A stretch of 63,811 nucleotides of DNA, the filler included. It is 14 parts of 14 records of this genome, joined end to end, with 100 filler letters (N's around TTAATTAATTAA, not from the genome) between each part and the next. Parts side by side here need not be neighbours in the genome. Positions count along the whole stretch, not along the records: positions 11,082 to 17,395 come from SRR15195285_4858; 13 more parts are not named here. One strand, given 5' to 3'. This document shows positions 3,184 to 17,495 of the stretch, piece by piece. The position numbers and the translations under genes were made by a program. Within the stretch, counting starts at the first letter, position 1, and each line of letters starts with the position of its first letter. A model generated the notes under the pieces. It was not told the DNA's origin. It made no database searches and saw only the letters and a list, made by a program, of their open reading frames with translations.

Positions 3184-3283
3184 NNNNNNNNNNNNNNNNN
3201 NNNNNNNNNNNNNNNNNNNNNNNNNNNTTAATTAATTAANNNNNNNNNNNNNNNNNNNNNNNNNNNNNNNNNNNNNNNNNNNN
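3184..3283. other. Artificial contig linker
   Basis: N44-TTAATTAATTAA-N44, giving stops in all six frames. Confidence 0.99.
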
Positions 3284-7246: not shown

Positions 7247-7346
7247 NNNNNNNNNNNNNNNNNNNNNNNNNNNNNNNNNNNNNNNNNNNNTTAATTAATT
7301 AANNNNNNNNNNNNNNNNNNNNNNNNNNNNNNNNNNNNNNNNNNNN
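7247..7346. other. Artificial contig linker
   Basis: N44-TTAATTAATTAA-N44. Confidence 0.99.
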
Positions 7347-10981: not shown

Positions 10982-11081
10982 NNNNNNNNNNNNNNNNNNN
11001 NNNNNNNNNNNNNNNNNNNNNNNNNTTAATTAATTAANNNNNNNNNNNNNNNNNNNNNNNNNNNNNNNNNNNNNNNNNNNN
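10982..11081. other. Artificial contig linker
   Basis: N44-TTAATTAATTAA-N44. Confidence 0.99.
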
Positions 11082-11549
11082 CCCAGACAATAGATGCGAT
11101 CAGAATCAAAATCATAATGAACCTCAATCGGGACGTGACGCGACGGCGGTCGCGCGGGCGGCCCAGTCGATCGATTCGTCGCGCGACGACACAATCATTG
11201 TTGTATACCCGCCGCTACGTGTACCCGATCGGTACGCTACAGTCGACTGTACCGATGTACGGTACATGTCGATGCATCCGGCACGCGTGCGCGCGCACAC
11301 CGCCGCGTCGCGCGGTCCCGCGCGGCGCGACGCGTACCGGCCGCGGCCGCGGTATGTACCGCAGGAACTCGCTGCACTGCCTGTGCACCACCCGCACCCC
11401 ACCGCTCTAGACTATAGTGGCTGTGAGCATTGGCTGCTGGCGAGTAGGGCGATGTTTATCAGAGCGAGGGCGGTTGCTGTGTACATTGGAGGAAACACAT
11501 GATTGCATTTTGTATAGGTAGAGGACACAGCGTCAATCGGTATTGAAAT

Positions 11550-13101
11550 ATGAACAACCGCCCCACAGCCAACGAATTTGAGGATCTGCTGGACGATATT
11601 CTGCCAGAGACTCCACGTGGTGGAGCCGAGGCGGACACCTTGCCAGGTGGCGTTGCGTACCGAGCGCCGGGTGATGGTGACGGAAGCGCTTCAGAGGTTC
11701 CTGCAGAGCACGCTCTAGAACCTTTCCAGCTGGCACCACCGAACGAACATGCCGCATCATCGCACAGCGATGCAAAGCAGGTGTTTATCTACGTGAACGT
11801 CTTTGCTGTCTCAGACATCGATACGGTGAATCAGACATTCAGAGCTAATTTCTTTATGCGGGCTTGCTGGGTGGAGTCGGAGCTGGGGAAATCGATCCAT
11901 CCCGAGAAAGCGTGGTCTGCACACCAGCAGGGCGACGACCTGGAGCAGTTCTGCATGGCGGAAGACGTATGGGAGCCGCGGCTGATGTTCGTAAATGCAG
12001 TAGAACCGGTTGAAAAGACCCAAGTGGAACTACGACCATGCCCATGGCGTCAGAGCCCACGTGGCGAACCAGTCCTGGAGTGGCGTGCGCATTGTCGCGG
12101 CATATTCCGCGAACGTTTCGAGTTGAAGTCGTTCCCATTCGACGTTCAGTCGCTGACTATCATGTTGTCGACACATCGTAGTCGTAGCCAGGTGTGGCTG
12201 CGAGAGGACAGCTTTAACAACACAAAAGGTGTCGTGCGAAAAGAGTTTACGGTCATGGCCGAGTTTGAGCTGGACGATCGCCCATACTTCGAGACATTGA
12301 TTGAGAATGACGTCGTACACGGTGCAGGCGCCGCCGGACGCTTTTCGTTGCTCCGCATGTATTTCGTGGCGGAAAGGCGGCACCAGTACTACCTCGTCAA
12401 TATCTGCCTTCCAATCTTCATGATCACTGCCATGGTTGCGTCAACGTTTGCTGTTCCACCTTCTCAGATCGCATCACGCCTCGGTGCGTGCGAGTATTTT
12501 CGTTTGCGTGCCGCTACGTACTCTGAACACGCGACAGCTTTCCTTGTGGCCAAGACAATTTGTGTTCAAGCAAGACAGTCTACTTGCAAATGGACTGGCA
12601 TTCCATGAAGCATACGCATTTTTCCAGTTGTCTCTGTGTGTGACAATATTGTTCTGTTCCGCTATTCTGCGTTTTGGCTGTTGATAATTATGTGCGTGGG
12701 TCTCATTGTTGTCAATCGCAGGGCTATCATTTACGCTCGTCCTCTCCTCTGTTGCCTTTAAGTTTATGGTGGCGCAAGATCTGCCACGTGTCAACTACAT
12801 GACGCTGTGTGACGTGTACTCGCTTGCAAATTTCGTCTTTCTTGCTTTTGTGGTTTTTCAAACTTTGGCGCTGGGGATACTGTGTGCTACGCAACCCAAC
12901 GAACTAAGGAGTAGTGCAGGAGACTGTCCAGCAACGGGCGATATTGGTGGTTTGGACGCGTTCGATCGAGAGAGCCAAAAGGTGTTGGGCATTGGCTTTG
13001 CACTGCTCAACACGGTGATGGTGTTGCGCGCGCTATTTGCTTTCGTTCGCGAGCAAGAGAAGGCTGAGCGGCTGAGGGAAGGCTACTGGCAGCAGAAGTA
13101 G
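11550..13101 (+). CDS. Cys-less (Pro-loop, GLIC/ELIC-like) pentameric ligand-gated ion channel subunit
   Basis: SDIDTVNQTFRANF, WEPRLMFVN, Pro-loop ELKSFPFDVQSL, pre-M1 ERRHQYY, M2 RLGLSFTLVLSSVAF and LPRVNYMTLCD. Exons 11550-12483 and 12722-13101 (intron gtgcgt...cgcag). Confidence 0.92.
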
Positions 13102-13327: not shown

Positions 13328-16300
13328 CTATATTCGACCACCAGCTAGCAATTGCTGTACAGCATCCTTTGAAGAGGCCAGTCGTCCAAACAGCGCCACT
13401 GCGCGCTGCTGTCCTTCACGGCTACGCCCCGCCGGCGTCAACACGTGCGTATTCAGATCATGCACGGCTAGCAGCTCGAGCATGTGATACTGTCCTTGGC
13501 GCGACACCTTCACTGCTGACTCGAAGGCCTCCTCCGCATCAGAAACTGACCCCTGCGTGGCTAGAATGCGGCCACGGCAGCGGTAAGCAAGTGAATTAAC
13601 CCATAGATTAGAGTCACCACCGATAGACGAGTCTGGGTCGAGGCCTTTCTTCACATATGTGAGCGCTTTCTTCGGCTGGCCGAGCAGCTCCAGCATTAAA
13701 GCGCCCCAGGTGGGCGAACAATGCGCGCAGAAGTTGCCGTGGTGATGACCACGGCCGCCATCGTGGCCTGGAGTCAGCTGCCCAAAGGATGACAACGTAT
13801 CAGCGTCTGGCATGTCGTCCACGTTGCCACCTGAAGGCAGGCCTTTAGACAACAGCACCCACATCTCCTTGAAGTGCCACTCAAGGCTCTTCACCTCGCA
13901 GAAGCCTCCTTCCGCATCTTCAGCACGTGCCCGGAGCCACGGCATCTTCTCAGCCCACCGGTCTAGAGTATCTCCGACTCGCGACCAGTCGCACCCAAGA
14001 CTACGCAGGAGCTCAAGACCCTCCTCGTGTCGGTTGCAGAGGTATAGGCCTTGCGGGAGGTGGCAGGCTGCCCACACCATATCCATTGAGCCGTCTGCAC
14101 TTGGGGCTTGAATGAATCCTTGCAGGCATTCTAGCGTCTTGTCCATTGTTTTGCCTGCAGCTGAGAGGTTGCCCCAGTGTGCGAAAAGCGGAAATCCATG
14201 ACCCCATCCACTTAGCATTGGGTCAAATTGGATGCATTCGTAGATTCTTTCATGCATCGACAATTCGTACGTCTCGGCCGCCTCGATGAGCAGCGCACCT
14301 TTTTCGCCAAATATTCCCTCGTAATTGAAGTCTGGACACCGCGCGCAGCAATCTAGCATAACCCAATTGAAACATACGGCCATATTCAGATAAATCGCAC
14401 GATTTTCAGTCCCAGGAAGTTCGTTGCTAGCGACATCATTGCAGAAGTTGGCCATTTTTATACACTGTTTGCCAAGAGCGATCTCCGAGCCCGAGACTCC
14501 GTTGTGCTCGACGAGCAGCTTGGGGTAGAACTCGATCATGATCATGACCGTGAACACAGCCTCGGCACTCGTGGAAGCTGCACCACTTTCAATCAAAGCA
14601 TCCAGTCTTGGCTTGTAGACCGGTAGATCAACGGGATTGAACATTTTGATGATTAAGATGATGTTGGAACACATCACCTGGTCACGTTCGAACGTGTTCT
14701 CGGCCTGCTCGAGCGCTGCCACACAAGCTATCAACTGCTCGCGCCCCGAGCCCGTCCCCGACGTGCCACGCAGAGACTTAGCAGCTGCAGACCAGCGTAA
14801 ACCAGCTGCCCACCAGTCACCATTTTCCTGCGCGCGCTCTGCAAGCTGCTGTACACGCTCAGGGCCCAGAAAGCGCGCGCAAGCCACTGGCAGCGCGTCC
14901 TGCTGTCCTGTGAAGTCGTCTAGCCAAGTAATTGCTTGCTCATCTTCGTCCCATTCGTCTGTAGCCCAGGCACAGCGGACATGGTGTTCCATTTCAGTGA
15001 AGACATATTTGCTCAACTTGTCCACCGTCGCCATCTCCCGGTCCCATCCACACAGCCCGTCAATCGAGATTCCTGACGCTCTTAGTGTTGCTTCATGCTT
15101 CCGAATCATTGTACTCGGAACTCTGGCTTGTTTTGGGTTTGTTAAATCGGTTGACGAGCACACTAGGCCCTGCGCCTGCAATTTCTCTGCTTCTTCTGAT
15201 CCAGTCCCTAGCGCACGAAAGGAGATGTTTGAGCTCGTGAACGTTATTAACGCCAAAGTTTTTGATAACGTCACTCCAACGACACAGGATACTCGCGAGC
15301 TCGTGCCGCACTTTTCGAACAGAGCTCTGAGCTCATCAACTCCCAAGGTGCCACCTCGATTGTAGCCACTGACATCGCACAAAACCGTTGCATCTCTCAT
15401 AGCCACATCGCGAACCGGTCGCTGCTCCCGGAACAGTTCAATCATGTTCCGGTGAGCTGCTTGCAGCTCTTCGACTGTATGCATGGACATGCTGAAGTCG
15501 AGCAAGATATCGTGTAAAGAAGGTTGGTCCAGGGGTGGAAGCACGAGGTTACGATCAATCAGCATTTTTAGCCAACGGCGAATCTGTTTGAGTGCTATTG
15601 GTTTACCACTCCCGTGTTGTGCTTGAAACATGAATGCGAGAGCCTCCAGTGGCACGGACGAGTCCTCAGGTGCAAGTCCGAAGCACTTGAACAGGCTTCG
15701 TGCTCCTTCTGCGTGCGGGCCCTGAATCGATCTCAAGCTCGTTTTGATTAGGTTGTCCTCTGCCGATCGCATCTCGCCGCCAGCATCGAATTCGTCTCGA
15801 ATCATCTCCAGCACTCCGTCCCAATCTCCTTGCAACGACATATCCTTCAGTAGGCGGCCTGCGATGTTGACTGTCAAAGGAAGCCGTTTGCAGAGCCGAA
15901 CAATTTCGACCGCGGCCTGTGGAACTTCATCAGTCGTCTCTAAGCCAGCTGAAGCAAGCAACATCTTTTGCGCGTCTTCTTCAGATGGCATGCCTATCTC
16001 AACCAGCTCACAGGAATCAATGGAACCCTTCACTCGGCTAGAAATGAGCACGCGAGAGGTCGTGTCTGCATCTATGAAATTGAACGGCGTCTCGTGCGCT
16101 GGATCCCACAGGTCGTCTAGTACAAGTATGATCTCTTTACCCGCCATCGCCTCGGTCAGCATCTTTTGAGTTTCTTCTTCGCTACTCGTACCTAGTACAC
16201 TGCCAGTAAGCTGCATATACAGGCTTCTCTGACACTTTTCGAGCAAGGGTGCGTGGCCTAATGTCACCCAGACTACATAATTGAAGCGCGAGCGGATGTC

Positions 16301-17395
16301 GGGAGTGCGACATAACCAAGCACTCGTAGTTGTCTTTCCAACGCCACCTGTGCCACCAAAAACACATTGTCAACGTCACGCGTCAGTAGTGGCTGAGCTC
16401 TCTGCGTTGCAAAACCGCAGATTAGTGTTTGGGAAGCGCTCACCTATGCCGTAAAACCCCACTTTCGGAGACGAAGTCTTGCAAACAACATCCACGAGAG
16501 TCTTCATGGAGTCAGAGACTCGGATTTCAGTCGGAATTTGAGGAACAGCTGACGGTAGTTTGGCCTGCCCATCGCTGGGTGCGTCAGCTGCTGGCTGATC
16601 AGTAGGCTCCTCTTTGCGCAATCTCTCCAGCTCTTCACGCATAGAGTCGACTGAGAACAGCCCATCTTCGTCTTCTTCAATTTCTTCCTCTTCAGTGGGC
16701 ACAGCTAATTTAATTTGCGCAAGGACATTTTTGACGTTGGCAGAAAACGAATCGTCATTCAGAAGGGGAGTCCACAATGCTCCAGCTGTGAGGATTCCAA
16801 GCCATCCTGTCGCTCGCCAGCCAGATCGTGGATCTTCCAACATGATTGGAATCACAGGTACGCCTGACTGTTTAGCAAATTTCAGTTCCAGCCTGCAATT
16901 TTCACTGTCTTGATAAGCACTGGACATGAAACAGAGCACCACTGCAGCGCCTTGAACCCCTTCAGCCATGCTATCATAGATATCGCGCTGCATACCACCG
17001 TCGATATCCATCCAGCATTTCACTCCAGCAGCTTGCAGATCCTTGCGAGCCCTCGAGACGAGGTCCTGGTGATCCCACTGGTACGATAGCATGGCCCACT
17101 TGTCTCCAACAATGACTGTCTTCTTTACCGCGCCGGAGCTATTTTTCGCACGCCCCCGCTTTTTCTTGAGCAATGCTTCCAGATCCTCTTGAGGCTCTTC
17201 AAGCTCTTCTGCACCGCCGAAATGTGGACGGCCTTTGTGCGACTTCTGCGCAGTGGACGCTTGAACCACGTTCTTAGTTGTACCTGTTGGCGCTGTACGC
17301 GTCGGTCCACGACGGAAGGGGCTCGATACTGGAGGCTGACCAGGATCCATATGCGCTGACTCCATCGCAGACGAAGCGCCGACAATCAGCTCGAT
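13328..17395 (-). CDS. TIR - NB-ARC (STAND) - TPR-like NLR-type protein, possibly 5' partial
   Basis: TIR (AMLSYQWDHQ...CWMDI...SENCRLELKFA). Removing intron 16348-16443 restores P-loop GIGGVGKTT. Walker B LVLDDLWD, RNBS-B VLISSR, CKRLPL, LHD and a helical TPR-like C-terminus follow. An ATG is at 17365 but the frame is open to the contig edge. Confidence 0.9.
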
Positions 17396-17495
17396 NNNNN
17401 NNNNNNNNNNNNNNNNNNNNNNNNNNNNNNNNNNNNNNNTTAATTAATTAANNNNNNNNNNNNNNNNNNNNNNNNNNNNNNNNNNNNNNNNNNNN
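17396..17495. other. Artificial contig linker
   Basis: N44-TTAATTAATTAA-N44. Confidence 0.99.

Follow-up and report, generated by a model that had tools for sequence, protein, structure and literature searches.

A 5'-truncated TIR-NB-ARC receptor-type gene with a helical C-terminal solenoid and an intron in its P-loop, most probably from a picozoan

The DNA stretch analysed here, hereafter the window, is 63,811 nucleotides long and consists of contigs of about 4-6 kb joined by 13 N44-TTAATTAATTAA-N44 linkers, TTAATTAATTAA being a six-frame stop linker enclosed each time by a pair of 44-N runs (3184-3283, 7247-7346, 10982-11081, 17396-17495 and nine more sites). Because the contigs were concatenated, genes on either side of a linker are not physical neighbours, and gene neighbourhood across it is meaningless. 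The contig at 11082..17395 carries on its minus strand a receptor gene with a TIR domain, an NB-ARC module and a long helical C-terminus. It is a genuine two-exon stretch, with its 5' end absent, of a nuclear gene of a marine picoeukaryote, and searching both exons against the window with tblastn returned nothing besides the gene itself. Two open reading frames (ORFs), 16376..17365 (minus strand, 329 aa) and 13328..16267 (minus strand, 979 aa), share one frame, and the translation of 13328-17395 in this frame is interrupted solely by two TGA codons. The preliminary description had joined these ORFs by removing a 96-nt intron, and a direct reading of the intron sequence bears this out: exon 1 ends in ...GGC ATA G (16444), the intron runs from GTGAGC to CACAG, and exon 2 starts with GT GGC GTT GGA AAG (16347). 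Removal of the intron yields GFYGIGGVGKTT, read G F Y G I G G V G K T T. Counted from the ATG, the spliced product has 307 + 1 + 1005 = 1313 residues, and at least 1,323 with the open frame above the ATG. The order of its parts is N-terminal repeats of about 50 aa (of which only the last 10 residues are present), a TIR of the TIR_2 type, an acidic helical linker, NB-ARC, an insertion of 122 aa and a solenoid of about 570 aa. The features are as follows, residue numbers referring to the translation of exon 1 (P0002) or of the NB-ARC and following part (P0001).

17366..17395, minus strand: open frame above the ATG, reaching the contig end; IELIVGASSA, tail of the family's N-terminal repeat
16444..17365, minus strand: exon 1, starting at the first ATG in frame; 307 codons followed by base 1 of a Gly codon; encodes spacer, TIR and acidic/helical linker, ending in ...VGFYGI(G)
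16700..17104, minus strand: TIR domain, P0002 residues 88-222, from TIR_2, the structure model and Foldseek
16886..16888, minus strand: codon of Glu160 in NCRLEL of P0002, the putative catalytic Glu
16348..16443, minus strand: spliceosomal intron, 96 nt, GT..AG, phase 1, in the first Gly codon of GG(V)GKT, with two in-frame TGA
13328..16347, minus strand: exon 2, 1005 codons and a TAG stop at 13328-13330
15416..16347, minus strand: NB-ARC module (NBD-HD1-WHD), P0001 residues 1-310
16328-16347 and 16444, minus strand: P-loop GIGGVGKTT, intact only after removal of the intron 16348-16443
16103-16126, minus strand: Walker B LVLDDLWD, P0001 residues 74-81
16034-16057, minus strand: RNBS-B-like SRVLISSR, P0001 residues 97-104
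15875-15892, minus strand: GLPL-like CKRLPL, P0001 residues 152-157, with RLPL in place of GLPL
15509-15520, minus strand: MHD-like SLHD, P0001 residues 276-279
15050..15415, minus strand: insertion of 122 residues, P0001 residues 311-432, between the WHD and the helical domain
13331..15049, minus strand: all-helical, TPR-like C-terminal solenoid, 573 residues, presumed sensor and autoinhibitory domain
13505-13591, minus strand: weak TPR motif (TPR_14, 0.0025, below cutoff)

The placing of the intron within the P-loop is upheld by RNA and by relatives of the gene. In X7, a seawater metatranscriptome selected for poly(A), a contig of 376 nt (record 21) aligns to 16094-16344 and to 16441-16565, skipping 96 nt; when the cut is moved by 3, the skipped part coincides to the base with 16348-16443 and has GT..AG ends on the minus strand, and 16347 is joined to 16444. 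This contig differs from the window at 16 places (about 96% identity) and thus stems from a close relative, not from the same strain. An uninterrupted (V/I)GFxGxGG(I/V)GKT is found at the junction in all 18 relatives of alignment A1. In the relative P0067 (90% identical), residues foreign to the family directly precede GVGKTT, from which we infer that its contig is interrupted at the same place. Poly(A) contigs of X7 cover 13363-16344 without further joint, the gaps 14824-14901 and 15405-15465 being uncovered. No junction-spanning contig was found in the RNA runs X1, X2 and X4, where the uncovered part is no evidence of absence. Read-through of the intron at its TGA codons was considered and rejected in view of the spliced contig and of the uninterrupted P-loop in relatives; the gene itself is silent on how TGA is read, since its own stop is TAG.

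Related genomic loci are broken up in a similar way. L009 harbors a 73-nt GT..AG intron at GFCGM^GGIGKT (1529-1601, phase 0), one base upstream of the site used in the window, and L001-L003 and L007 have no intron at the P-loop site. Short introns also lie within the TIR of L007 (210-280 and 458-542), L008 (620-683) and L009, with lengths of about 65-85 nt across related loci. Short gene-breaking introns at varying places are thus a trait of the family. They are also the reason why the public protein call P0003 (962 aa) misses the P-loop and the TIR, beginning only at Met44 of exon 2; in this respect the gene is indeed hidden, as had been claimed.

The same cannot be said of its completeness. 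The receptor had been described as complete, with 17395 as its boundary, yet 17395 is the contig's last base before the N44-TTAATTAATTAA-N44 linker, and the frame above the ATG is open up to it. Since this frame reads IELIVGASSA, matching the tail of a repeat found in paralogues, the contig break must have cut off the 5' end of the gene. The repeat spans about 50 residues, S.L(R/Q)KRA..GV....E.A.DA..PK..LIELIV, and lies N-terminal of the TIR in most full-length relatives, in 1 to 6 or more copies (P0009, P0014, P0021, P0022, P0024, P0031, P0032, P0035, P0193); P0009, P0014 and P0024 carry it C-terminally as well. Among 363 fetched proteins, IELIV sits at the end of the repeat in 18 of 18 occurrences, and no Pfam match at E<=0.1 to the repeat was obtained in any of six relatives scanned. 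The absent 5' end is deduced from paralogues only, because a longer orthologous first-exon ORF was not found, the best match to the TIR ORF being 76% identical over 47% of the query. An X1 RNA contig has the 30 bases 17366-17395 in common with the gene, continues past the contig end and diverges over 107 letters exactly at the ATG side; the divergent letters are absent from the window. A paralogue with the same repeat tail may be the source of this contig, or it may represent an alternative exon.

The NB-ARC module is recognized by Pfam (PF00931) at 5.8e-18, with 65.5 bits for a cutoff of 23.5, and the motif series announced for it (Walker B, RNBS-B, CKRLPL and LHD) was located in P0001 at the positions listed above. 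In alignment A2, the second Asp of the Walker B pair (D78), the sensor Arg (R104), P156, L157, H278 and D279 are invariant. The gene has, in conserved form, all residue classes that a STAND switch requires, namely the Lys of Walker A, the acidic pair of Walker B, the sensor Arg and the His-Asp of LHD. The model of this part (pLDDT 80.5, pTM 0.75) superposes best on Apaf-1, with Z 21.3 (root-mean-square deviation, rmsd, 5.7; 396 aligned), residues 1-577 of the model lying on residues 157-594 of Apaf-1; the NB-ARC of NRC1 follows with Z 19.5 (rmsd 3.9, 279 aligned). Searched against the PDB, the family profile reaches ZAR1 (7e-17), Apaf-1 (5e-9), ROQ1 (1e-8), RPP1 (2e-6) and the bacterial AfsR (3e-5).

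The TIR domain is a clear member of TIR_2 (PF13676; 6.3e-18, 65.9 bits for a cutoff of 28, P0002 residues 92-179), whereas the plant-type TIR profile PF01582 scores 13.6 bits, under its cutoff of 21.3. Its model has a pLDDT of 85-96 over residues 88-222. Foldseek returned 87 matches to it at E<=0.001, the TIR of SARM1 being the best (E 1.1e-5), followed by RPS4, RPP1, AbTir (1.3e-4) and PdTIR, with a probability of 1.00; non-enzymatic TIRs are found too, including MyD88 (7beq, 1.6e-4), TLR1 (1fyv, 2.4e-4) and Hydra TRR-2. The Glu of C..EL was said to be kept in this domain, and it is: E160 in NCRLEL is invariant in 19 of 19 sequences of one alignment and in 10 of 10 of another. Against the PDB, a profile of the family's TIR alone has as its best match Cat1 (E 1.3e-4), an NADase (NAD+-cleaving enzyme), and aligns the Glu of NCxLEL with the Glu of WCWDEL; the Glu of a plant WCLDEL is aligned likewise with E160, at a non-significant E of 0.92. 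We take this position (C..EL or W.x.E, after strand C) to be the catalytic one in TIRs. Scaffold TIRs generally lack the catalytic Glu. A phmmer search of PDB sequences with the TIR exon gives 0 matches at E<=1, hence the need for the TIR profile, and the full-length family profile matches PDB entries through its NB-ARC and TPR parts, none through the TIR.

Between the WHD and the helical domain, the 122-residue insertion is found solely in this gene and in P0067, with 105 of the 122 residues identical and no gap. It has no family match in Pfam, and its model (pLDDT <50) suggests, at low confidence, a small alpha/beta unit. The idea that it is an unspliced in-frame intron was rejected: the poly(A) contigs X7 records 18 and 19 cross it without joint, and P0067 keeps the frame open without any indel. 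The remainder of the protein is modelled as all helices, with a pLDDT mostly of 80-97, and superposes on the TPR of APPBP2 (Z 14.1), on the STAND-TPR structure 6mfv (Z 13.6), on Rap (Z 13.0) and on LGN (Z 12.9). Its neighbours in the ESM Atlas are TPR_12 and NB-ARC clusters at 0.92-0.93, and no leucine-rich repeat (LRR) family is matched at E<=1 in Pfam. Relatives of the solenoid number 380 among 1.84 billion representatives; 168 (as 50% clusters) reach E<=1e-10, and 22 reach E<=1e-30. TIR_2 and NB-ARC precede it in all seven long relatives tested, one of which has three and another two TIR_2 stretches before NB-ARC (P0166, P0199). The architecture first proposed, TIR followed by NB-ARC and TPR-like helices, is thereby corroborated by Pfam for its first two domains, both above their cutoffs, and by Foldseek and the superpositions; the profile search for TPR fell short, its matches staying below cutoff.

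The receptor is a member of a large and diversified family whose layout it shares. In the family profile search, 40 of the 79 matches listed lie at E<=3.7e-50, and the family comprises at least 40 clusters at 90% identity. Named relatives come from the Picozoa sp. single-cell amplified genomes (SAGs) SAG11, SAG22 and SAG31, the last with two proteins; further labels are SAG31, COSAG04 and COSAG05 in the family profile search, and COSAG01, COSAG03 and SAG22 in the TIR search, the COSAG labels presumably also denoting Picozoa. A protein of the haptophyte Prymnesium polylepis is matched at 3.7e-50. Next after the family come plant receptors with nucleotide-binding and leucine-rich repeat parts (NLRs), at 2e-16, and TIR-NB-ARC-WD40 proteins from metagenomes and bacteria, at 5e-15 to 5e-9. 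The relationships were explored with a quick, unrooted maximum-likelihood tree of 51 NB-ARC domains: 31 of the family, chosen as near-complete, 1 from the haptophyte, 12 from plants and 7 bacterial-like, the latter labelled from their names or architecture. Members of the family group in a single clade (SH-aLRT 99), to which the haptophyte protein is sister (96), and the 12 plant sequences form a separate clade (96) that excludes the family. The family is not nested among the bacterial-like sequences, and the deep branching, with a support of 45, favours neither a plant-like nor a bacterial-like origin. The two SAG31 proteins fall in different subclades, which makes them paralogues within a single genome. 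Picozoa, an uncultured-dominated lineage, lack plastids, are related to red algae and branch near the base of Archaeplastida. With Picozoa SAGs as the named relatives, the protist source first assumed is supported, and the organism behind the window is most probably a picozoan; a bacterial contaminant is excluded by GT..AG introns and poly(A) RNA.

The same contig carries, convergent with the receptor gene, a homologue of Cys-loop ligand-gated ion channels (11550-13101, plus strand), which matches Neur_chan_LBD at 1.2e-6 and, weakly, Neur_chan_memb. In this gene, 11895 and 12462 are directly joined in an X1 RNA contig that skips 566 nt with the non-canonical ends TC..CT; such a skip would delete much of the Neur_chan_LBD match.

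A number of known systems resemble the receptor, each in part. The plant TNLs RPP1, ROQ1 and RPS4 have their TIR and NB-ARC in the same order, share the P-loop, Walker B, RNBS-B Arg, (G)LPL, (M/L)HD and the TIR Glu in C..EL, and two of them, ROQ1 and RPP1, are reached by the family profile through NB-ARC. Unlike them, the receptor has a TIR of the TIR_2 type, a solenoid in place of the LRR and post-LRR parts, family-specific repeats before the TIR, and an NB-ARC outside the plant clade. Its top structural match is Apaf-1, over NBD-HD1-WHD and part of HD2, and its LHD motif, rather than MHD, adds to the likeness to Apaf-1 and CED-4; Apaf-1, however, combines a CARD head with a WD40 sensor, where the receptor combines a TIR head with a TPR-like one. 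The NADase TIRs of SARM1, Cat1 and AbTir, although the top fold matches of its TIR, are only 12-20% identical to it and occur in other contexts (SAM/ARM, CRISPR CARF). Bacterial TIR-NB-ARC-repeat STANDs and Avs proteins have the same effector-STAND-repeat layout; by contrast, the receptor gene has spliceosomal introns and poly(A) RNA. The likeness to bacterial Avs put forward at the outset therefore stands for the layout and not for the family, since the STAND part (P0001) matches 0 PADLOC families at E<=0.01; the structural match to Avs3 is poor (E 1.2e-4, TM 0.13), and the TIR part obtains only a weak PADLOC match, to SAVED_TIR (2.9e-4). Among protists, NB-ARC-TPR proteins of Ectocarpus have been described as candidate immune receptors and have been noted in Acanthamoeba too (PMC3341825, PMC11378527, PMC4053784). 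Going by these descriptions, they resemble the receptor in having NB-ARC and a C-terminal helical repeat sensor, their TPRs being canonical exon-shuffled repeats, unlike the solenoid found here; TIR is named 0 times in the main texts of PMC3341825 and PMC4053784. For animals, and with mention of a few protists, TIR-like heads on NACHT STANDs are described in a 2026 preprint (10.64898/2026.09.21.753143).

Taken with these likenesses, the architecture would be that of a ligand-triggered STAND switch bringing NADase TIRs together for defence or cell death, a reading that we consider reasonably probable. The receptor would then act in the manner of an NLR or an apoptosome-type STAND switch. Its resting NB-ARC would be closed and ADP-bound, held so by the solenoid and the LHD/WHD. 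A ligand or perturbation sensed by the solenoid would lead to nucleotide exchange at the P-loop and to oligomerisation, which would gather the N-terminal TIRs into composite active sites around Glu160. These sites would cleave NAD+, causing its depletion or producing a nucleotide signal, and the outcome would be growth arrest or death of the infected cell.

Several observations weigh against this reading or against parts of it. The N-terminus is absent. NADase activity, ligand triggering and a role in defence are only inferred. The Z scores of the helical repeats (12-14) are within the range that unrelated solenoids reach, and the TPR_14, TPR_2 and TPR_1 matches of Pfam, all below cutoff, concern one motif at residues 919-947. 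Comparison with X7 fits a coding sequence under moderate purifying selection: among the 39 listed differences from the window (171 further rows are outside the count), 23 fall at third, 11 at first and 5 at second codon positions, and 19 of the 37 changed codons are synonymous; with about half of the changed codons non-synonymous, constraint is only moderate. As to splicing, the sole spliced RNA contig stems from a population about 4% divergent, and two contigs 100% identical to the window, X1 record 6 (16153-16427) and X2 record 12 (16177-16436), extend 80 and 89 nt into the intron. No poly(A) selection is stated for their RNA libraries, and the X1 and X2 samples show only unspliced RNA or contaminating DNA. 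At the junction 16347/16444, for which RNA had been proposed as a test, the exons are joined in the contig of about 96% identity, and the identical ones run into the intron.

These intron-containing contigs from two RNA libraries, together with the short contig (6.3 kb) and a public gene call without the first exon, are what speaks for a dead or artefactual locus, be it an intron-retaining pseudogene, an assembly chimera or bacterial contamination. This explanation is largely refuted and very improbable: the frames are open over 307 and 1005 codons, substitutions are in excess at third positions, poly(A) RNA includes a spliced contig, independent assemblies repeat the layout, and a bacterial origin is excluded by the short GT..AG introns of this gene and of L007-L009. 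If the gene is functional, its TIR could still be a non-enzymatic assembly or adaptor module, as in animal TLR/MyD88, recruiting other TIR proteins within the same architecture. Foldseek matches MyD88, TLR1 and Hydra TRR-2 about as well as NADase TIRs, and some of the 87 short TIR-only predicted proteins found at E<=1e-20 in the same sequence pool could be partners. Many of these short proteins, however, are gene fragments, none of the 19 family members departs from Glu at the catalytic position, and the best profile match in the PDB is an NADase TIR, Cat1; an adaptor role is distinctly unlikely.

Alternatively, the switch may have nothing to do with pathogens and govern cell fate, with death or regulation triggered by stress or by the life cycle, as for Apaf-1 or bacterial regulators of the AfsR/MalT type. 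Apaf-1 as the top structural match would suit such a role, as would weak NCBIfam matches to AfsR-type and TPR regulators, a STAND part without PADLOC defence-family match, and a solenoid kept as one domain family across paralogues rather than swapped. We nevertheless hold it to be unlikely, if the least so of the alternatives weighed here. Paralogues and orthologues have diversified widely in this family (40 clusters at 90%, 168 clusters at 50%, two or more subclades within one SAG), as is usual for immune repertoires and unlike single-copy housekeeping switches, and TIR heads with a conserved catalytic Glu are mostly tied to conflict systems. A TIR-bearing STAND switch for defence or cell death is the reading that we favour.

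For plants and bacteria, effector-STAND-repeat receptors headed by a TIR have been studied well, and the architecture and logic of the present one are already known; its novelty lies in the lineage, in the family-specific solenoid and in the N-terminal repeats. In a literature search, supplements being outside its scope, no paper came up with both Picozoa and NB-ARC, and the single paper with both Picozoa and TIR concerns phycobiliproteins and is unrelated. The only protist counterparts found in this search are the NB-ARC-TPR candidates of brown algae and Acanthamoeba. To these the locus adds a diversified TIR-NB-ARC-solenoid family in Picozoa, which escapes prokaryote-style or naive gene calling, its P-loop and TIR being split by short introns. 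Among heterotrophic picoeukaryotes of the sea, its members would be candidates for the first switches of immunity or cell death, and they are a data point on the origin of eukaryotic TIR-NB-ARC fusions. More speculatively, Picozoa and at least one haptophyte might possess, in this large and diversifying repertoire, a working intracellular immunity, for example against giant viruses, that shares an ancestral eukaryotic fusion with plant TNLs. We regard this as a long shot; if true, the TIR-NB-ARC fusion would predate the green lineage and would be neither a plant invention nor a recent bacterial import.

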